Shown: positions 1 to 17,300 of the stretch, in pieces
Layout: each line of letters opens with the position of its first letter
Position numbering within the stretch: position 1 is the stretch's first letter
Source: Actinomycetota bacterium
GTDB lineage: Bacteria > Actinomycetota > Acidimicrobiia > Spongiisociales > UBA11373
Direction of reading: 5' to 3'
Assembly: GCA_020444505.1 (NCBI GenBank)
Contig: JAHLKU010000001.1
Span: 62,810 to 126,809 of the forward strand
Length of the DNA: 64,000 nt
Notes under the pieces: generated by a model
Told to the model about the DNA's origin: nothing
Databases searched by the model: none
The model's input: the letters and a program-made list of their open reading frames with translations, nothing else
Program-made: the position numbers and the translations under genes

Positions 1-220
1 TACTCTGGCGGGCCGAGGCGATGAGGCCCGCCTGCAACCGCCCGCCTTGGGACGATGGCTTCTGTGACCCCCAGCGTTCACCGATGACCGTCCCATCACC
101 CCCGGAGCCGCCGTTCTCTGTGCCGCCGTGCGCGGCGGGGCCCGTCCTCGCCGCCCGCAGATCACCCGATCCACGCCACAGAGGCCCGTGCCCGGATGCT
201 GCCGTGCCGTGGAGGACACC

Positions 221-2511: not shown

Positions 2512-4068
2512 TCACGAGTGCAGGTCCCTGCGGGTCCAGGGCGGGAGCGCGGCCACCCCCAGCAGCACGACGCCGCCCACCAGGGCGGCCAGCAGGCTCC
2601 GCCATTGCCCGGCGCCGCCGGCCGGCAGCACCCACGCGGCCGCCCCCCAGGCGGCGAACCCGGCGGCGGCCGCCACCGGCAGGCCGCGGGCCGCCGATGC
2701 GGCGACGGGGCGGGCCCATTCCCACCCCATGCGCCCGTACCAGACCACCGCCAACCCGATGGTGTACACCAGGATCGACAGCGTGCTGGCGAGCGCCAGT
2801 CCGTTGACGCCCATCGCCTCCTGCAGCCCCCAGTAGATCGGGACGGCGGCCACGGTCGCCAGCGTGCCGATCACGACGGGAGCCCACATCTGCTCCCGGG
2901 CGTAGAACGACCTGGCGAGGATCTGCTGGACGCCCCACAGCGGCACGCCCAGGGCGAAGAAGACGACGGTGCCTGCGGTGGCCAGCGTGTCGGCGCCGCC
3001 GAACTCGCCGCGTTCGTACAGCACCCGCACCACCGGCACCGAGAGCGCCATCAGCCCGGCGGCGGCGACGAGGCTGAGCAGCACCACCGGCTTGAGGGCG
3101 CGCACGATGGCCGCCGACAGATCCTTCAGTCTGCCCTCGGCGGCGAGCCTGGCGAGGAACGGGTAGGTCGCCACCCCGGCGGCCTGGGCGATCACCCCGA
3201 CCGGGACCAGCATCGTCAGCCGCCCGAAGGTGAGCCACGACACCGCACCCTCGCCGACGAGCGAGCCGAAGCTCCTGCCCAGCTGCTCGTCGAGCACCAC
3301 GAGCGACTGGCCCAGCATCAGCGGGATGGCCAGTGCGAAGTAGCGCCGGAACGCCGGGTGCTTGCGGATCGAGCCCACCGGGAACCGCAGCCCCGCCCGC
3401 CACGCCCCCCACGCCTGCAGGGCGAAGATCCCGAGGACGGCGCCGGCCAGCGCCCCCCACGCGAAGCCGTCCGCACCCGGGTCGTCGCGCCCGACGGCGC
3501 CGAGCACGCCTCCCACGATGATCGCCACGTTGTAGACCAGCGGTCCCAGCGTGGGGATGACGAATCGCTCCCGGGCGTACTGCACGGCGGTCAGCAACTG
3601 CCCGAGGATGAAGAAGATCTGGGCCGGCAGGACGATGCGGGTGAGCCGGGTGGCGTTCGCCACCTGGGCGTCGGTGAAGCCGGGCTCGATGGCCCGCAGG
3701 ATCGGCTCGACGAACGGCATGGCCACGACCACCAGCGCGGTGATCCCGATGGCGAGCGGCCTGGCGATCGCCCAGAAGGCCCGCCAGGCGTCCTCCTCGT
3801 CGCCGGTGGCGAACCGGCGGGTGAGGATGGGGATGAGGGTGATCGCCATGTAGGCGCCGGCCAGCAGGTAGTTGAGGACGTCGGGGATGAGGAAGGCGAC
3901 GAAGTAGGTGTCGCCCGTGGCCCCGGCGCCGAGCAGCCCGGCGAAGACGATCTGGCGGACCAGGCCCAGCACCCGGGAGAGCAGCACCCCGCCCGCCACG
4001 ATGGCGGCGGCGATCCCCATGCGCCGGTAGAGGCTGCGCGCCGGGGGAGCGGGGGCGGGGTCGGTCAT
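2512..4068 (-). CDS. murJ: lipid II flippase MurJ/MviN
   Basis: 518 aa. The N-terminus ...SRVLGLVRQIVFAGLLGAGATGDTYFVAFLIPDVLNYLLAG... is typical of MurJ, and the protein is polytopic. TAAGTT (revcomp of 4075-4080) lies 6 nt upstream of the ATG. Confidence 0.9.
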   Translation of the reverse strand: MTDPAPAPPARSLYRRMGIAAAIVAGGVLLSRVLGLVRQIVFAGLLGAGATGDTYFVAFLIPDVLNYLLAGAYMAITLIPILTRRFATGDEEDAWRAFWAIARPLAIGITALVVVAMPFVEPILRAIEPGFTDAQVANATRLTRIVLPAQIFFILGQLLTAVQYARERFVIPTLGPLVYNVAIIVGGVLGAVGRDDPGADGFAWGALAGAVLGIFALQAWGAWRAGLRFPVGSIRKHPAFRRYFALAIPLMLGQSLVVLDEQLGRSFGSLVGEGAVSWLTFGRLTMLVPVGVIAQAAGVATYPFLARLAAEGRLKDLSAAIVRALKPVVLLSLVAAAGLMALSVPVVRVLYERGEFGGADTLATAGTVVFFALGVPLWGVQQILARSFYAREQMWAPVVIGTLATVAAVPIYWGLQEAMGVNGLALASTLSILVYTIGLAVVWYGRMGWEWARPVAASAARGLPVAAAAGFAAWGAAAWVLPAGGAGQWRSLLAALVGGVVLLGVAALPPWTRRDLHS

Positions 4069-4143
4069 CGGGGCAACTTAGCGCAGGGGGAGGCGGCCGC
4101 TTCGCCACCGGCGGACGGGACCGGGCACGGTACGATCCGCGCC

Positions 4144-4518
4144 ATGCACGGCGGACCGGATCGGCGGCACCTGATCCTCTGGGACGGCGGCTGAGGCCTG
4201 TGACGCCGCAGCGCCGCCTGGGTCAGGCGGAAGGACCAGTCTCATCGCTTCGAGGCCCTGCCCTACCAGGACGCCCCGTCGCCGCCGATGACGCCCGGCC
4301 TGGCCGAGGCATGCGCCCGGGCCGTCCACGTGGTCACGGCCGACGGCGAGGTGCTGCGGGGAGGGGCGGCGTCGCTGTTCGTGCTCGACGGGGTGGGCTA
4401 CCGCAGGACGGCCCGGGTGCTGTCGCTTCCGGTCTTCCGCGCGTTCGTGGACCTGGCGTACCGCATCGTCGCCCGCAACCGGCGATTCTTCGGGAGGTTC
4501 CTGTTCCGCCGGGAGTGA
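4144..4518 (+). CDS. DCC-family (DUF393) thiol-disulfide oxidoreductase. Both CxxC Cys positions are in-frame TGA (4192-4194 and 4201-4203). Candidate UxxU selenoprotein, alternatively a pseudogene.
   Basis: Read-through from ATG 4144 gives MHGGPDRRHLILWDGG*GL*RRSAAWVRRKDQSHRFEALPYQDAPSPPM..., in frame with tracked ORF 4288..4518. This fits the DCC signature (h-h-[FYW]-D-G-x-C-x-x-C ... D....F.F..LQ). TACGAT at 4131-4136 lies 7 nt upstream of ATG 4144. Confidence 0.55.
4214..4230 (+). promoter_or_regulatory. candidate bacterial SECIS-like hairpin (7-bp stem, apical G-G-U-C)
   Basis: CCGCCUG-GGU-CAGGCGG is a perfect inverted repeat, alternatively a 6-bp stem with a GGGUC loop. It starts 10 nt after the second TGA and 19 nt after the first. 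Confidence 0.4.
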
Positions 4519-4551
4519 GCCCCGCCGGGATCGCCGCCCCCCGGGACGAGT

Positions 4552-4581
4552 GAAGGGCCCCCGCCGGAGCGGGGGCCCTTC
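4552..4581. terminator. bidirectional intrinsic-terminator-like hairpin between convergent genes
   Basis: GAAGGGCCCCCGC-CGGA-GCGGGGGCCCTTC forms a perfect 13-bp GC-rich stem. It lies between the DCC gene stop (4518) and the BON-LysM gene stop (4597). Confidence 0.7.
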
Positions 4582-4596
4582 GCAGCGTTCGTTCGG

Positions 4597-5193
4597 TCAG
4601 GCGTCCAGTGCGGGGATCCGCAGCACCTGGCCGGGGTAGATGAGATCGGCGCTCTTCAGCATCGGCTTGTTGGCCTCGAAGATGGCCGGGTACTTCGACC
4701 CGTCGCCGTAGAACTCCTTGGCGATCTTCGAGAGCGTGTCGCCCTTCTTGACCTCGTAGAACTTCGACTGCGCCAACTTCGCGGCTTCCTGTGCCTTGCG
4801 GCGGCGCTCGCGCAGGTCCAGCATGGCCTGCTTGCGAGTCTCGGCCTCGTCCTTGGCATCGGCCCTGGCGCGGGCCTTGGCGATGGCCTCCTCGCGGGCC
4901 TTGGCCCACTCGGCGCGTTCGCCCTCGGTGGTGCCGGCGACGAAGCCGTCGGCCTCGACCTCGCCGACCCCCTCCGTGTTGCCCACGATGAGGACGGCCT
5001 TCTCGATCGTCGCGTCGTCGGCGGCGACACCGCTGATGGTGGCCTTCCCGCCTGCGAACTCGATCTCGAGGTCGTCGATGTCGAGACCGCTGTCCTTCAC
5101 CTTGGCGGCGAGGGCCTCGGCCATGGCCGTGTCGTCCGCCGAAGCGGCCGCAGCGACCTTCTCACCGATGGTCTCGAGAAACTTCCAACCCAC
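4597..5193 (-). CDS. BON + LysM domain protein (Kbp/YgaU-like)
   Basis: BON-like segment LEIEFAGGKATISGVAADDATIEKAVLIVGNTEGV, a charged coiled linker, and a C-terminal LysM domain YEVKKGDTLSKIAKEFYGDGSKYPAIFEANKPML...GQVLRIP. GTG at 5191-5193 is preceded by a perfect AGGAGG 5 nt upstream, so the tracked ATG 5253 is probably too long. Confidence 0.85.
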   Translation of the reverse strand: MGWKFLETIGEKVAAAASADDTAMAEALAAKVKDSGLDIDDLEIEFAGGKATISGVAADDATIEKAVLIVGNTEGVGEVEADGFVAGTTEGERAEWAKAREEAIAKARARADAKDEAETRKQAMLDLRERRRKAQEAAKLAQSKFYEVKKGDTLSKIAKEFYGDGSKYPAIFEANKPMLKSADLIYPGQVLRIPALDA

Positions 5194-5292
5194 GTTTCCT
5201 CCTGTCGATCGTGGCGGGGCAAGCGTAGCCACCCGCCTGTTCGTACGGGGCATCCGTTCCGGGGAGGCTTCCGCTGCGAGGGCGACCGCGGC

Positions 5293-8750: not shown

Positions 8751-8798
8751 GCCGTCCGAGACGCTAGTCGCGGTGGCGCCGGCGCGTAGGCTTCGGCC

Positions 8799-9506
8799 AT
8801 GCGTCCAAAGGGGGGCGAGATGGCGAGACGGCTGCTGCCGTTGGCGATCGTGTGGGTGGTGCTCGTCGCCGGCTGCGGCGAAGACGAAGCCGGGACCACT
8901 GCCACGACCTCGGCCGCGACGACCACGACCGTGATCAGCACGACGGCCACGACGACCAGCACGACGACATCGACGACCACGACGACCAGCACCACGACCA
9001 CGACGGTCCCGGAACCGACGGTGGTCGAGGTCGACGTCGACACCTACGACGAGGCGGCGAGCATCTGGGACGAGTACGTGGGCTTCAGCGACATCGCCTC
9101 CCTGGAGGACAGCGCGTATCCGTTCAGCCACGTATGGGGGGCCAGGTCGGGTGAGTTCGTCTACGTCGTGGAGATCCCCGACCAGCCGGCCGGCGAGGCG
9201 ACCGTGTCCGCCAGGCTCTCGTCCGAACTGGGCGGCGGCACCGAGGACGACGTCGACGACGCCCTCTCCGACGTCGGCCTGCGGGTGAACGGCGTCGACT
9301 ACCCGGTGCGACCGGTGGTGTCGGACGACCGAGCGGGTGAGGTGGTCGAGTGGACCGTCGACGGGGCGGACTTCGCCGCCGGTGCCAACGAGATCGCGTT
9401 CACCGTGGCCGGCGACGCCGAGCACCGCTGGGGGCTGTGCATCTACCAGGATCCGGTCGACGGGGAGGGCCCGTCCTACCCGATCACCATCACCTACACG
9501 CCCTGA
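8799..9506 (+). CDS. secreted lipoprotein with a Thr-rich linker, unknown function
   Basis: Signal peptide plus lipobox LVAGC, followed by about 45 residues of T/S/A low complexity and a roughly 150-aa acidic domain. TAGGCT at 8787-8792 lies 6 nt upstream of ATG 8799. An alternative ATG at 8820 follows a G-rich SD. Confidence 0.6.
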   Translation: MRPKGGEMARRLLPLAIVWVVLVAGCGEDEAGTTATTSAATTTTVISTTATTTSTTTSTTTTTSTTTTTVPEPTVVEVDVDTYDEAASIWDEYVGFSDIASLEDSAYPFSHVWGARSGEFVYVVEIPDQPAGEATVSARLSSELGGGTEDDVDDALSDVGLRVNGVDYPVRPVVSDDRAGEVVEWTVDGADFAAGANEIAFTVAGDAEHRWGLCIYQDPVDGEGPSYPITITYTP

Positions 9507-10123: not shown

Positions 10124-10199
10124 GTCCCTCGTTCCAGGTCGGTGATCAGCCTAGATCGCCCGTCCCGGCGACCGCCCTCCCCGGTCGGGGGCGGCGCCG

Positions 10200-10208
10200 T
10201 GGGATAAT
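10200..10208 (+). promoter_or_regulatory. extended -10 promoter element (TGgGATAAT) for the BMC operon, leaderless arrangement
   Basis: TGGGATAAT ends 6 nt before the GTG start at 10215. There is no SD in between. Confidence 0.4.
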
Positions 10209-10214
10209 CCCCGG

Positions 10215-10835
10215 GTGACGCCCCGCGCCCTGCCCACCGAAGAGGAGATCCGCGCCCTCGTGCGCAAGGTGGTGGCGTCGGTAGCCGCCGGTGCGCCGCC
10301 GGCGGAGGGCAGGGCCGCAGACGCTCCCGCCCCGGCGCCCGCCCCGCCCCCCGCTGCGGCGATGGGGACGATCGCCGTCGGCGCCGACCACGGCGGCTTC
10401 CGCCTCAAGGAGCGCCTGGCCTTCCGCCTCAAGGAGCAGGGCTGGGCGGTCGTGGACTGCGGCACCGACAGCACCGAGGCCGCCGACTACCCGGAGTTCG
10501 CCCGGGCCGTCGCCGAGCGCGTCGCCTCCGGCGAGGCCGACTGGGGCATCGTCGTGGACGGAGCCGGCATCGGGTCGTCGATGGCCGCCAACAAGGTGCC
10601 GGGGGTGCGGGCGGCGCTCTGCTACGACCTGTCGTCGGCGGCCAACAGCAGGGAGCACAACCATGCCAACGTGCTGACCCTCGGCGCAGGCCTGGTGGGG
10701 GAGGCCCTCGCCTGGCAGATCGTCCAGACCTGGCTGGGCACCCCGTGGGCCGAAGGGCGCCATGCCCGCCGGGTGGCGATGATCGACGACCTCGACCGGC
10801 GCTACCGTGACGGTTCCGCACGAGGACGGGAGTGA
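10215..10835 (+). CDS. RpiB/LacA/LacB-family sugar-phosphate isomerase with an N-terminal encapsulation-peptide-like extension (BMC cargo)
   Basis: Core IAVGADHGGF...GIVVDGAGIGSSMAANKVPGVRAAL...HNHANVLTLG matches RpiB. It is preceded by about 50 extra residues: the amphipathic helix EEEIRALVRKVVASV followed by an Ala/Pro linker. Confidence 0.85.
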   Translation: MTPRALPTEEEIRALVRKVVASVAAGAPPAEGRAADAPAPAPAPPPAAAMGTIAVGADHGGFRLKERLAFRLKEQGWAVVDCGTDSTEAADYPEFARAVAERVASGEADWGIVVDGAGIGSSMAANKVPGVRAALCYDLSSAANSREHNHANVLTLGAGLVGEALAWQIVQTWLGTPWAEGRHARRVAMIDDLDRRYRDGSARGRE

Positions 10836-11683
10836 TGGATCAGGACGCGATCGTCGAGGCGGTCACCCGCGAAGTGCTCGCGGCGCTGACCGGCGAGGCC
10901 TGGGACCACTACCTGGCGTGCATCGGCGACTGCGCCGCCCACTCCTCCGACCAGGTCCGCGACGTGGTCGCCGCCGGCGCCACCCGCATCTCGTTCAACG
11001 GGTCGGGCGCCGATGTGCCCACCGACCTGGCCGGGTACATCGACCACACCCTCCTCAAGGCCGATGCCTCCGCCAAGGACATCGACCGGATGTGCGATGA
11101 GGCCGTCACCTACAAGTTCGCATCGGTGTGCGTCAACCCGGCCTGGGTGCGCCGGGTGGCGGAGCACCTGCGCGGCAGCGACGTCATCGCCTGTTCCGTG
11201 GTGGGGTTCCCCCTCGGCGCCCACACCCCCGAGATCAAGGCCATGGAAGCGCGGCGCGCCCTGCGGGACGGCGCCAGGGAGATCGACATGGTGGTGAACA
11301 TCGGCGCCGTCAAGTCGGGCGACTGGGACACGGTCGAGCGCGACATCGCCGGGGTGGCCGACGCCTGCCGGGAGGCGGGTGCGGTGTGCAAGGTCATCAT
11401 CGAGGCGGCCATGCTGGACGACGACGAGAAGGTCGTCGTCAGCCGCCTCGCCCGCAAGGCCAAGGCGCACTACGTGAAGACGTCCACCGGGTTCGGGCCG
11501 GGCGGCGCCACGGTGTACGACGTGGCCCTGATGCGGGAGGCGGTCGGGCCCGACATGGGCGTGAAGGCGTCCGGCGGCATCAAGACCCGCAAGGACGCAC
11601 AGGACATGATCGCCGCCGGGGCCACCCGGATCGGGGCGTCGGCGGGCATCGAGATCGTCAGCGAAGCGGGAGGTACCGCGTGA
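10832..11683 (+). CDS. deoC: deoxyribose-phosphate aldolase (DERA) with an N-terminal extension (BMC cargo)
   Basis: IDHTLLK...[10 protein letters not shown]...GFPLGAH...EIDMVVNIG...CKVIIE...YVKTSTGF...GVKASGGI...RIGASAG. An N-terminal extension of about 65 aa begins with [19 protein letters not shown] 10832 (or ATG 10835) overlaps the previous stop. Confidence 0.9.
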
Positions 11684-12309
11684 GCAGCAACGTCGAACTG
11701 CGGGGCTATTCGTTCCTGGACAGCCTGCAGCCGCAGTACGCCGCCTACCTGGGCACGGTGGCGCGCGGGTTCCTGCCGCTGGCCGGCGAGGCCTCGCTGA
11801 TGGTGGAGATCTCCCCGGGCATCGAGATCAACCGCCTCACCGACGTGGCCCTGAAGAGCACCACGGTCAAGCCCGGCATGCAGATCGTCGAGCGCTACTT
11901 CGGCCTGCTCGAGGTGCACTCCCCGAGCCAGGCGGAGACCCGGGCGGCGGGGGCGGCGATCCTCGATGCGGTCGGCCTCTCCGAGGACGACCGCATCAGG
12001 CCCCGCATCGCCAGCAGCCAGATCATCCGGCGCATCGACGACCATCAGGCACAGCTGATCAACCGCATGCGCTACGGCCACATGCTCATCCCCGGCCAGA
12101 CCCTCTACGTGCTGGAGATGGAGCCGGCGTCCTACGCCGCGCTGGCGGCCAACGAGGCCGAGAAGGCCGCAGAGATCAACGTCCTCGAAGTCCGCTCCTT
12201 CGGCTCGCTGGGCCGGGTGTACCTCGGAGGTGAGGAGCGGGACATCGACGTGGGCTGGAGAGCGGCGGTCGCCGCGCTGGAGGGGCTCTCCGGCAGGGAG
12301 ATGAAGTAG
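11680..12309 (+). CDS. BMC shell protein, tandem-domain (BMC-T)
   Basis: 209 aa with two BMC-like repeats ([22 protein letters not shown]... and [29 protein letters not shown]...). GTG 11680 overlaps the deoC TGA and is preceded by GGGAGG. Confidence 0.75.
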
Positions 12310-12340
12310 GTTCCCCGAAAGGCAAGGAGACGAGGAGCAG

Positions 12341-12646
12341 ATGGCTGAAGCATTGGGCATGATCGAATGCCGAGGGTTCCCGGCGATGGTCGAGGCGGCC
12401 GACGCCATGGTGAAGGCCGCCAAGGTCGAGCTGGTGTCGATGGAGAAGACCGGCGGCGGGTACGTCACCGCCGTGGTCCGCGGTGACGTGGCCGCGGTGA
12501 AGGCAGCCGTCGACGCCGGCACCCGCGGTGCCGAGAAGGTCGGCGAGGTCATCGCGACCCACGTGATCGCGCGCCCGCACGTCAACATCGACCAGGTGCT
12601 GCCCCTCGGCAGGGCCGAGGAGGCCGCGGCCGAGCAGAGCGGGTAG
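12341..12646 (+). CDS. BMC shell protein, hexamer-forming (BMC-H, PduA/EutM/CcmK-like)
   Basis: [60 protein letters not shown] is a canonical Pfam00936-type sequence. Confidence 0.95.
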
Positions 12647-12652
12647 CCCGCC

Positions 12653-12940
12653 ATGCTGCTCGGCAGAGTCGCCGGCACGCTGGTGGCGAGCCGCAAGGAG
12701 GAGACCCTCGAGGGCCTCAAGTTCCTGGTGCTCAAGCAGGTCGACGTCGACGGCGGAGACACCGGCGGCTACGTGGTGGCCGCCGACGCCGTCGGCGCCG
12801 GCCTGGGCGAGGTGGTGCTCTACGCCACCGGTTCCAGCGCGAGGCAGACCCGCTACACGCACGAACGTCCCTGTGACGCGGTGGTGATGGCCATCGTGGA
12901 CACCTGGGAGGTCGGCGGCGAGGAGAAGTACCGGAAGTGA
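12653..12940 (+). CDS. BMC vertex protein (BMC-P, EutN/CcmL/PduN-like), copy 1
   Basis: [31 protein letters not shown]...[16 protein letters not shown]...AVVMAIVD. Confidence 0.9.
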
Positions 12941-12943
12941 GCG

Positions 12944-14398
12944 ATGGCTGAGCCGTTCTCCCCGGAGGAGGTCCACGAGATCATCGCCCGGGTCCGGCGC
13001 CGCCTCGGCGGCACCGACACCGAGGCCCCCGCCAAGCCGCGCGTCCCGGCGGAGATCCCCGAGACGCAGCTGGGGGAGGGCATCTACGCCACCATCGACG
13101 AGGCGGTTCGCGCCGCGGGTCGGGCGTTCGATGCGTACCAGGCGCTCGGCCCCGACGGCCGGGAGGCGGTGGTCGCCTCGATCCGCAGGACGATGCTGGA
13201 GCACGCCCCCCGGCTCGCCAAGATCGCGGTCGAGGAGACCGGCCTGGGCCGGGAGGAGGACAAGCTCCGCAAGATCCTCCTCGTCACCAACCGCACTCCC
13301 GGCCCCGAGGACCTCGACCCGATCATCGAGACGGGCGAGCACGGCATGATGCTCACCGAGATGGCCCCGATGGGGCTGGTGGCGGCGATCACCCCCACCA
13401 CCAACCCGGTGTCCACCATCGTCAACAACTCGATCGCCATCCTGTCGGGCGGCAACGCCGCCGTCCTCAACGTCCACCCCAACGCCAAGCGCGTGTCGGC
13501 GGAGAACGTCCGGCTCATCAACCGCGCCGTCATCGCAGGGGGAGGCCCCCCCGACCTGGTGACGGCCATCCCCGAGCCCACCATCGAGAGCGCCCAGGAA
13601 CTGATGCACCACCCGGCGATCCGGGTGCTGCTCGTCACCGGCGGCGGCGGGGTGGTGCGCGAGGCGCTGAAGACCGACAAACGGGCGGTGGCGGCGGGGC
13701 CGGGGAACCCTCCCGCCGTCGTCGACGAGACGGCCAACATCGAGGCGGCCGCCAGGGACATCGTGGCCGGGGCGTCGTTCGACAACAACATCATCTGCAT
13801 CGACGAGAAGACCGTCATCGCGGTCCGCGGCATCGCCGACGAGTTGATCCGCTCCATGGGGCGGCACGGCGCCCGGGTGCTCAAGGAGCACGAGTTGAAG
13901 AAGGTCGAGCGGGTGATCTTCTCGTCGATGGGCCCGCCGTCGAAGCCGGGCATCATCAACCCGGCGTGGATCGGCAAGGACGCCGCCGTGATCGCCCAGG
14001 CCGCCGGGGTCGAGGTGGACGGCGACCCCCGGGTGCTGCTGGCGGAGGTGCCGGCCGAGCACAACCTGGTGTGGACCGAGCAGATGATGCCGGTCCTCCC
14101 CCTGGTGCGGGTGCCGGATGTGGACGCCGCCATCGACCTGGCGGTGGAGAGCGAGCACCGCTTCCGCCACACCGCTTCGATCCACAGCACCAACGTGCAG
14201 ACGATCACCCGCATGGCCCGCACCATCAACGTGAGCATCTTCATCGCCAACGGTCCCAACTACGCCGGGCTGGGCGAGGGCGGCGAAGGCTTCACATCGT
14301 TCTCCATCGCCAGCCCCACCGGAGACGGCCTCACCCGGCCGCTCACCTTCACCCGGGAGCGGCGGATCGCCGTCGTCGGGGCCCTGAGGATCGTCTGA
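12944..14398 (+). CDS. CoA-acylating aldehyde dehydrogenase (PduP/EutE family) with an N-terminal encapsulation-peptide-like helix
   Basis: [15 protein letters not shown], the catalytic-Cys context [12 protein letters not shown], and a C-terminal [10 protein letters not shown]. The N-terminus [15 protein letters not shown] is followed by a Pro-rich linker. Confidence 0.9.
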
Positions 14399-14399
14399 G

Positions 14400-15005
14400 G
14401 TGGCCCGCCACCCCGCCATCGCCCTCCTGGAGTTCGGGTCGGTCACCGCCGGGATCGTCGCCGGCGACGCCATGGTGAAGCGGGCACCGGTGGCGCTCCA
14501 CAGCGGCACCGTCCAGCCCGGCCACTACCTGGTGCTGATCGCCGGTGAGGTCGGCGACGTCGAGGAGGCCGTGGACGCAGGCACCACGGCGTCCGGCGAC
14601 GTGCTGCTCGACCTGGTGCTGCTCTCCGACGTGCACCCCGACGTGGTGGCGGCGCTGCGCGGCGCCAGGCTGCCGGGGCCGGCGGAGGCGCTCGGCATCA
14701 TCGAGACCCAGACGGTGGCCTCCATCCTGGAGGCGGCCGACGCCGGGGTGAAGGGCGCCGCAGCCGATCTGCTGGAGGTGCACCTGGCCGACGGCCTCGG
14801 CGGGCGCGGCTACCTGCTGTTCGGGGGCACGGTGTCCGACGTGGAGGCGGCGGTGGACATCGGTTCGGCACGGGCCCACGAGGGGACGCTGGTGCGCCGC
14901 GCCGTCATCTCGCGACTGCACGACGAGATGCGCGCCGACCTCGACGCCCACCCCCGGTTCGGTCCGTCGGTCGGCAGGGGAGGGGGCGGCGATGCGGCTG
15001 GCTGA
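14400..15005 (+). CDS. BMC shell protein, tandem-domain (BMC-T, PduT-like fusion of two BMC domains)
   Basis: Two repeats: [25 protein letters not shown]... and [30 protein letters not shown].... GTG start lies 1 nt after the aldehyde dehydrogenase stop. Confidence 0.85.
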
Positions 15006-15952: not shown

Positions 15953-16336
15953 TCAGCCGCCCGGAGCCTCCCGCGGCCCCGCGCCGCGGTACACGTGGAC
16001 GGTCACCGGCTGCGTGGTGATGAGCCCGTCGCCGACCATCTCGTCGAGCACCGGGAGGATGGCCGCCACCTTGTCGGCACGCGAGACGCACTCGATGACG
16101 ATGGGGAGGTCCTCGGAGAGCCGCAGCACCGACGAGGTGTGCAGACGGCTGGACCGGCCGAACCCCTCGATGCCCTTCAGCACCGTGGCGCCCGACAGGT
16201 TGCTGGCCCGCAGCGTCTCGACGATGGCGTGGTGGAGCGGCCGCCCCTCGTGGCGGTCGTCCTCGCCGACGAAGATCCGCAGCAGCACGCCCTCCTCAGG
16301 GGCGCCTGCGGGGGAGGGACGGGGGTCGGGTTCCAT
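15953..16336 (-). CDS. DUF190 (PII-like) protein associated with CrcB
   Basis: LLRIFVGEDDRHEGRPLHHAIVETLRASNLSGATVLKGIEGFG...LPIVIECV. It is the last gene of the riboswitch-crcB-crcB operon. Confidence 0.8.
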   Translation of the reverse strand: MEPDPRPSPAGAPEEGVLLRIFVGEDDRHEGRPLHHAIVETLRASNLSGATVLKGIEGFGRSSRLHTSSVLRLSEDLPIVIECVSRADKVAAILPVLDEMVGDGLITTQPVTVHVYRGAGPREAPGG

Positions 16337-16357
16337 GGTGTGCCTCCTGCTCGGTCC

Positions 16358-17106: not shown

Positions 17107-17117
17107 GGCTCCTCCTC

Positions 17118-17172
17118 GTTCCGTAGGAGCCATCAGCCGGCGCGGCGGTTGCGGCGAGCCCCATCGCCGTGA
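17118..17172 (-). promoter_or_regulatory. fluoride riboswitch (crcB RNA motif)
   Basis: The reverse complement of 17121-17168 reads GGCGAUGGGGCUCGCCGCAACCGCCGCGCCGGCUGAUGGCUCCUACGG. It has the conserved GGCGAUG, GCC, AAC, CUGAUG and CUCCUAC blocks in the right order and lies directly upstream of crcB. Confidence 0.85.
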
Positions 17173-17300
17173 GGCGCCCGCACCTGCCCGCGAGGGGTGG
17201 GGCGGTGCCGGGCCGGGGACCGGCCGGGGCGCGCTCGGGCCGGATCGTACTGCGACGGGGCCGGCCGACCGCCATCCCGGGCGGCGCTAACCTCGCCGTG

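Follow-up and report, generated by a model that had tools for sequence, protein, structure and literature searches.

Near the start of a stretch of 64,000 nucleotides from an Actinomycetota bacterium (GenBank assembly GCA_020444505.1, contig JAHLKU010000001.1; the whole stretch is called the window below) lies a gene of the DCC1-like (YuxK/DUF393) thiol-disulfide oxidoreductase family, and it raises an unusual question. Both active-site cysteine (Cys) codons of this gene are now UGA, with six nucleotides between them, and a short perfect hairpin follows at positions 4214-4230. Can a single hairpin act as the selenocysteine insertion sequence (SECIS) for two UGA codons, so that selenocysteine (Sec, U) is inserted at each of them? 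A preliminary description of the sequence had proposed this. The proposal is now supported computationally by the linkage of the hairpin to the Sec-type forms of the gene, covariation in its stem, the choice of codons in its arms, and its fit to the published model of the bacterial SECIS. On these sequence comparisons, the hairpin is very probably a bacterial SECIS inside a DCC1-like gene of the UxxU type. The two codons are referred to as UGA-1 and UGA-2, and the coordinates of all parts are collected in Table 1.

Table 1. Positions in the window of the DCC1-like gene, its two in-frame UGA codons, and the parts of the putative SECIS hairpin.
Feature	Position	Strand	Remark
DCC1-like (YuxK/DUF393) thiol-disulfide oxidoreductase gene	4144..4518	+	124 sense codons including two in-frame UGA; stop at 4516-4518
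UGA-1, codon 17, first Cys of DGxCxxC	4192..4194	+	Placed by alignment with orthologues; predicted Sec or SelB-delivered Cys
UGA-2, codon 20, second Cys of the motif	4201..4203	+	Placed by the same alignments; in the CxxU orthologue L002, TGA is found here only
5' arm of the putative SECIS hairpin, CCGCCUG	4214..4220	+	Encodes part of Ala-Ala-Trp
Apical loop, GGU	4221..4223	+	Predicted SelB contact; reads GGGUC with the closing G-C pair
3' arm of the putative SECIS hairpin, CAGGCGG	4224..4230	+	Part of Val-Arg-Arg, with a rare AGG Arg codon

The translation places the ATG at 4144, both TGAs, and the stop codon in one frame. With Cys typed at both UGAs, the product matches the Pfam family PF04134 (E 5e-17, 63.6 bits against a gathering cut-off of 27.8), and the alignment covers residues 11-115 and profile positions 1-109 of 113. 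The motif of the product reads W-D-G-G-U-G-L-U, with a UGA at each Cys position of DGxCxxC, which makes it UxxU. The two UGA columns correspond to the two invariant Cys of PF04134 and of 21 close CxxC orthologues, and the UGA-1 column is TGA in both the UxxU and the UxxC orthologues. The G+C content of third codon positions (GC3) is 0.93 on the 3' side of both UGAs, and GC3 as well as protein conservation continue unbroken on either side of them. In public assemblies, the gene is called merely as an open reading frame (ORF) of 76 amino acids from the ATG at 4288 (Met48).

Two other explanations of the TGAs were considered and set aside. The region is 100% identical, TGAs included, in contigs of three separate sequencing-run assemblies (SRR14069905, SRR14069906, and SRR14069923; five contigs read), and therefore the two TGAs are not sequencing errors. 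GatB similarity places the organism in an uncultured lineage of Actinomycetota, with the best match to an Actinomycetota MAG (72%) and the next ones to Acidimicrobiia MAGs (61-66%). A genome-wide reassignment of UGA is unlikely because most of the 44 high-GC3 ORFs in the window end in TGA. When GC3 was compared on both sides of in-frame TGAs, no further selenoprotein candidates were found in the window, just gene junctions and antisense frames. The TGA at 9504-9506 (+), for example, ends an ORF at 8790-9506 that has no Pfam match, and it is followed by 212 more in-frame codons with a GC3 of 0.97; the ORF and its extension are probably just two adjacent genes in the same frame.

To place the gene among its relatives, orthologues were retrieved by way of the protein, independently of the hairpin, from a genome collection, a metagenome collection, and the contigs of truncated protein-search matches. 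Twenty orthologues have TGA at one or both Cys positions and are called Sec forms here: seventeen UxxU, including the gene in the window, two UxxC (L009 and L016), and one CxxU (L002). They come from Chloroflexota, Myxococcota, other Proteobacteria, Planctomycetota, Eisenbacteria, and Actinomycetota, and the 21 close CxxC orthologues served as the comparison set. Cys-type homologues are 50-70% identical over the whole length, and Sec and Cys forms are interspersed in a rough neighbour-joining tree, which is indicative only. A second scan of the genome collection with the protein alignment returned just the loci already found. Of the best 120 database homologues, about one in four is a fragment of 76-106 residues that starts after the CxxC position (P0016 and P0072-P0120). 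Contigs were fetched for eight of these fragment homologues, and seven of the eight turned out to be UxxU genes shortened by the gene caller.

Since there are no insertions or deletions between the motif and the hairpin, the region can be compared codon by codon. The score of each gene is its number of consecutive base pairs about a triloop whose centre lies 30 nt past the first Cys/Sec codon. This number is 10, 8, 8, 6, 7, 9, 9, 8, 8, 7, 10, 1, and 9 in the first 13 Sec forms, against 0-3 in 20 CxxC forms (Mann-Whitney p = 1.8e-6) and 4 in the 21st, L129. Seven Sec forms were added later; six of them have 7-8 pairs and the other, L131, has a register-shifted stem of 8 bp. Overall, a hairpin presenting G[G/A/U]U is found in 19 of the 20 Sec forms (18 in the register of the window and one shifted), but in register in none of the 21 CxxC forms. 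According to the preliminary description, the proposal would fall if the hairpin were not conserved, or if it were equally present in Cys-containing orthologues simply as coding sequence; that comparison has now been run, and it favours a SECIS. The loops among the protein-retrieved Sec forms are GGU, GAU in L004, GUU in L128 (347-412, where Trp-Phe replaces Trp-Val), and CUGGGU in L131. In the last of these (305-370), the 3' arm is changed to encode Val-Gln and the stem is shifted to GCUGCUGC/GCAGCGGC, and the 6-nt loop is still exposed.

The stem is also conserved as a structure. Across 12 Sec forms, 85% of the helix cells are paired, compared with 25-48% in slid controls, and six pairs are changed on both sides. 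The covariation score for these 12 forms is 0.329, compared with 0.175 in shuffles, and it was reached by none of 500 shuffles. The sole helix predicted by RNAalifold in the 90 nt around the motif is the hairpin at 4214-4230. The codons of the 3' arm point in the same direction. After Trp-Val, Arg is encoded by AGG or AGA in all 17 Sec forms that have Arg there, while it is encoded by CGC in all three Cys forms with W-V-R; AGG accounts for only 8.4% of the Arg codons in the genes of the window. A synonymous change from AGG to AGA in L007 and L124 is paired with a change from Ala (GCC) to Val (GUC) in the other arm. This is selection at the nucleotide level, in which the choice of codons is bent to build the stem.

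The spread of the element was examined with the exact pattern GAYGG-N4-TGAGG-N4-TGA-N14-CTGGGTCAG, which was searched in species-representative genomes (about 1.2e12 positions scanned). Few chance matches are expected, because the pattern specifies about 20 bases. It was found in 66 species-level genomes from many phyla, and all 66 matches translate to DCC1-like UxxU proteins when judged by eye (a strict motif regular expression flagged 31 of the 66). The record titles include Myxococcota, Chloroflexota (Caldilineaceae and Anaerolineae), Pyrinomonadaceae, Thermoanaerobaculia, Chthonomonadaceae, Armatimonadota, Planctomycetota including a Brocadia metagenome-assembled genome (MAG), Rubrobacteraceae, and Proteobacteria. 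Among the 66 are the complete chromosomes OZ245034.1 and OZ241372.1. The pattern itself fixes the three apical pairs, which therefore carry no weight. The four pairs that follow are left free by the pattern, and they are paired in 95%, 100%, 95%, and 77% of the genomes, with C-G swapped to U-A, G-C, and A-U; beyond the seventh pair, pairing goes down to 35-48%. Since the free pairs are kept through the seventh and then drop, the conserved element is a hairpin of 7 bp and 17 nt. A test of stem covariation had been suggested at the outset, and it thus gave compensatory changes in the Sec orthologues and in the 66 genomes alike. Overall, the hairpin lies just 3' of in-frame UGAs that align with the Cys codons of homologues, and its structure is conserved with compensatory changes in Sec forms and dispensable in Cys forms, as is to be expected of a functional SECIS.

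The geometry given in the preliminary description was confirmed. The sequence, read directly, forms a hairpin of seven perfect Watson-Crick pairs and a GGU loop, or a 6-bp stem with a GGGUC loop if the pair G4220-C4224 opens. The distance from UGA to stem is 19 nt for UGA-1 and 10 nt for UGA-2, and that from UGA to loop is 26 and 17 nt, respectively. The E. coli fdhF element had been cited there with correct spacing and loop as well, the real sequence being UGA, 11 nt, and GGUUGCA-GGUC-UGCACC. When folded alone, the 17-nt hairpin has an energy of -11.2 kcal/mol, and its five inner pairs have a probability of at least 0.9. The bacterial SECIS model of Zhang and Gladyshev, as described in PMC13188914, allows 3-9 nt in the loop and 4-16 bp in the stem, and asks for a G in the first two loop positions followed usually by G or U, a distance of 16-37 nt from UGA to loop, and a minimum free energy at or below -7.5 kcal/mol. 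The hairpin agrees with this model on all four counts, with a GGU loop of 3 nt (5 nt as GGGUC), a stem of 7 bp, its energy, and both loop distances, which had already been thought to suit bacterial search models and indeed lie inside the published range (PMC13188914). Thirteen perfect hairpins of at least 7 bp whose loop has 3-5 nt and begins with G[G/U] can be counted on the + strand of the 64 kb, and about 0.0045 of them are expected by chance per 22-nt interval allowed after a given UGA. The single sequence provides only moderate evidence that the hairpin is beyond chance, and the decisive evidence is comparative. A role of the hairpin as an attenuator or terminator was rejected, because a T-run is missing and a conserved ORF surrounds the hairpin.

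The bearing of one hairpin on two codons is best seen in the forms with a single UGA. The UxxC orthologue L009 has UGA-1 only and the CxxU orthologue L002 has UGA-2 only, and both carry the same hairpin at the same codon offset; therefore, one element plausibly serves either codon. The simplest reading of these sequences is that one hairpin may serve whichever position is UGA, and both positions in UxxU. Decoding could potentially proceed as follows. SelB, with GTP and Sec-tRNASec, would bind the G-G-U apex of the hairpin. When UGA-1 enters the A site, the hairpin would still be intact 19 nt downstream, and the tethered complex would deliver Sec. The ribosome would then advance three codons, so that UGA-2 would occupy its A site and the hairpin would lie 10 nt ahead, in nearly the geometry of fdhF (11 nt), and a second SelB ternary complex on the same hairpin would deliver the second Sec. 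Afterwards, the ribosome would melt the hairpin and translate it into Ala-Ala-Trp-Val-Arg-Arg. This would yield a protein of the thioredoxin fold whose redox centre is Sec-x-x-Sec, in the diselenide or diselenol state.

The fold of such a product was approached through a CxxC homologue of 68% identity, whose AlphaFold model has a mean predicted local distance difference test score of 77.7. The elements of the model are ordered strand 1, CxxC, helix 1, strand 2, helix, strand 3, strand 4, and helix, with the CxxC between strand 1 and helix 1. The Foldseek matches of the model are all weak (E >= 0.047), and they are mostly thioredoxin-fold proteins, namely mycoredoxin, the C-terminal domain of DsbD, glutaredoxins, and thioredoxins. 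A sequence search of PDB structures found no relative. In a model of this kind, UxxU at the CxxC position would be a diselenide/diselenol redox couple.

Several observations weigh against a SECIS that serves both codons, and they are best considered together with the other explanations of the locus. In E. coli, fdhF tolerates little deviation from its spacing of 11 nt, which would disfavour the use of UGA-1 at 19 nt. ARAGORN found no selenocysteine tRNA in the 64-kb window or at 79 Sec-form loci, and a Pfam search of 38 window ORFs found no selA, selB, or selD in the window. The Rfam SECIS families have no match, whether the window is scanned at the gathering threshold or 4130-4330 at E <= 10. 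In naked RNA, the outermost two pairs of the hairpin have a probability of only about 0.45, because they compete with an upstream helix, although that helix would have been melted by the translating ribosome. L016, a UxxC gene from an Eisenbacteria MAG, is without the family hairpin, and the CxxC gene L048 (1376-1441) has a hairpin, GGCCUG-GGCG-CAGGCC, near the position of the SECIS. A hairpin-like sequence is also seen near this position in the CxxC gene L129 (380-445). Those of L048 and L129 may be relics of a recent reversion from Sec to Cys, or chance. Furthermore, the fold z-scores of the surrounding 49-86 nt are not significant in this DNA of 72.7% G+C, as would be the case if the UGAs were true stops of a pseudogene and the hairpin a mere by-product of encoding Ala-Ala-Trp-Val-Arg-Arg in G+C-rich DNA. 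In favour of this explanation, gene callers take the UGAs as stops and report the 76-residue fragment, and the W-V-R-R peptide is kept in Cys forms too. However, the Cys forms with the same peptide (L001, L044, and L046) encode it with other codons and form no hairpin, and a by-product would not account for compensatory changes in the stem. As for a pseudogene, two independent nonsense changes that fall precisely on the catalytic Cys codons are seen again and again, in 17 relatives retrieved by way of the protein and in the 66 genomes, and both GC3 and protein conservation run on across the UGAs. True stops with an incidental hairpin are thus extremely improbable.

A functional SECIS may also be accepted, but with a different output. 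One such possibility is that the hairpin serves UGA-2 only, and that UGA-1 is passed by near-cognate read-through, by a second unrecognised element, or by another conformation of the mRNA. It is UGA-2 alone whose spacing resembles that of fdhF. In L016, which has the first UGA only, another hairpin lies 9 nt further upstream (3028-3090); it has 10 bp, GCUGCCGGGC-[GGUGACCUGG]-GCCCGGCGGC, and its loop, starting GGU, is 17 nt after the single UGA. As the hairpin of L016 has moved to restore 17 nt, a preference for the shorter distance is hinted at. Yet L009, also with the first UGA only, retains the standard hairpin at the standard place; within the 90 nt surrounding the motif, RNAalifold predicts no conserved helix besides the hairpin; and 26 nt falls within the range of the published model (PMC13188914). 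A hairpin for UGA-2 only is considered very unlikely. The other possibility is that one or both UGAs are decoded as Cys by the SelB-dependent tRNA-ReC (a selC*-type tRNACys), in which case the protein would be CxxU, UxxC, or CxxC, either constantly or depending on the selenium supply. This has to be counted among the points against double Sec insertion, since tRNA-ReC could insert Cys at either or both SECIS-dependent UGAs and is enriched in UXXU genomes (PMC13582414), and since the comparative signal shows dependence on the hairpin and is silent on whether the amino acid is Cys or Sec. On the other hand, no tRNA of any kind was found in the window or in the flanks of 79 Sec-type loci, and hence nothing specific for tRNA-ReC. 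In addition, UxxU is the commonest of the Sec forms (17 of 20), which is easier to explain if the UGAs give something beyond Cys. Decoding of the UGAs as Cys is therefore regarded as unlikely, and Sec at both positions under one SECIS is the preferred reading.

The surroundings of the gene contain some further elements. A perfect 12-bp G+C-rich palindrome, GAAGGGCCCCCG-CCGGAG-CGGGGGCCCTTC, is located at 4552-4581, 34 nt past the stop codon of the DCC gene, and separates it from a convergent LysM/BON gene (4597-5253, -). It has no T-run and probably acts as a terminator in both directions; a scan of 3950-4700 for promoter and terminator consensus sequences made no calls, the palindrome included. 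Two fluoride riboswitches score above the Rfam gathering score in the window, at 8-71 (+) with 34.5 bits and at 17117-17177 (-) with 51.9 bits. One of them precedes a Band_7/SPFH gene (68-1306) and the other is upstream of a DUF190 gene (15953-16357, -). A bacterial microcompartment (BMC) locus extends over 10155-15005 (+) and encodes, in order, RpiB, a DeoC-type aldolase, a BMC-H shell protein, an EutN/CcmL vertex protein, an aldehyde dehydrogenase, and a tandem-BMC shell protein. When tblastn was run with approximate E. coli SelD and SelA queries against all the retrieved DNA, it found no sel gene flanking the other Sec-type loci; its sole match is a selD-like gene beside a distant CxxC DCC gene on the metagenome contig L072. 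On this contig (3-698, -, and 793-1134, +), the distant CxxC DCC member is divergent to the selD-like gene, which is 48% identical to the approximate E. coli SelD query (E 1e-56) and has Cys at the active-site position; it is a single case.

When the wider claim is considered, the balance of evidence tilts towards DCC1-like UxxU proteins being a widespread and uncatalogued selenoprotein family, found in at least 66 genomes, in which one 17-nt hairpin would support two SelB-dependent Sec insertions and the product would hold a diselenide. The catalogue of 119 prokaryotic selenoprotein families and subfamilies of May 2026 has no PF04134, DUF393, or DCC entry (PMC13188914). No NCBIfam model matches the product, and its homologues are named just 'DCC family thiol-disulfide oxidoreductase', never selenoprotein. 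No literature was found that links YuxK or 'oxidoreductase DCC' with selenocysteine, in a search that lay outside subscription journals and supplementary tables. It appears that DCC1-like proteins are unreported as a selenoprotein family in the sources checked. Every gene caller sampled cuts these genes to 76-106 residues, with the active site lost, and therefore databases do not show that the DCC1-like/YuxK family has a branch that uses Sec.

If two insertions do take place, then the geometry between SelB and SECIS, and the turnover of SelB on one SECIS, would be far more elastic than the fdhF paradigm implies. The natural series of UxxU, UxxC, CxxU, and CxxC forms, with its small gene and its element of 17 nt, offers a ready-made system for the spacing tolerance of SelB delivery. 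Moreover, natural diselenide couples are rare, and UxxU within a thioredoxin fold would provide one.

How does this locus compare with known systems? The nearest relatives are the Cys-type DCC1-like/YuxK proteins (DUF393, COG3011), which share the Pfam family, the position of the DGxCxxC motif, and the predicted fold with the product described here and are 50-70% identical to it; here, unlike in Cys-type YuxK genes, both Cys codons are UGA and the mRNA carries a hairpin. E. coli fdhF has a comparable 17-nt hairpin within the ORF, as its minimal upper stem-loop, with G-G-U-C at the apex and a spacer of 11 nt against 10 nt for UGA-2. However, the hairpin of the window would work like the fdhF-type elements without being placed among them, since its 5' arm is free of a bulged U and there are two spacers, 10 and 19 nt, the latter leading to an extra UGA upstream of the stem. 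Its stem is a perfect one of 7 bp, with -11.2 instead of -4.2 kcal/mol, and its loop is GGU or GGGUC where that of fdhF is GGUC.

UxxU as such is listed for three bacterial selenoprotein families, namely a Prx-like thiol:disulfide oxidoreductase (SelL-like), a metal-binding 'putative mercuric reductase' protein, and FmdB (PMC13188914). As in the present gene, two UGAs two codons apart replace CxxC in these families, and the SECIS lies in the ORF just downstream. They belong to PF00578, NF041115, or TIGR02605, whereas the gene described here belongs to PF04134 (DCC1-like), and, unlike for them, the claim here rests on a large natural series of UxxU, UxxC, CxxU, and CxxC forms with measured covariation. 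For bacterial SelL, Shchedrina et al. in 2007 are said to have described one SECIS placed to support either or both insertions.

A parallel in mechanism is found in the group 4 [NiFeSe] hydrogenases with UXXU, CXXU, or UXXC motifs, for which a single downstream SECIS has been proposed for both UGAs, with the caveat of tRNA-ReC raised in the same study of September 2026 (PMC13582414). Like the DCC1-like genes, these hydrogenases are a mosaic of UxxU, single-Sec, and Cys forms, and the core of the SECIS is conserved across the motif types. In the hydrogenases, the Sec residues are Ni ligands in a large enzyme, whereas here they would form the redox pair of a thioredoxin-fold protein of 124 residues; moreover, the hairpin differs in sequence from the hydrogenase SECIS and is very compact, with 17 nt. 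The preliminary description had called one SECIS for two UGAs mechanistically unusual, which is fair when E. coli is taken as the paradigm, but in-silico precedents exist (PMC13188914, PMC13582414); the literature read so far goes no further than proposing that one bacterial SECIS feeds two UGAs with six nucleotides between them (PMC13582414). Therefore, because UxxU families are already listed and control by one SECIS has already been proposed, the mechanism suggested for the DCC1-like gene would be of a known kind, in a protein family in which it appears to be new.

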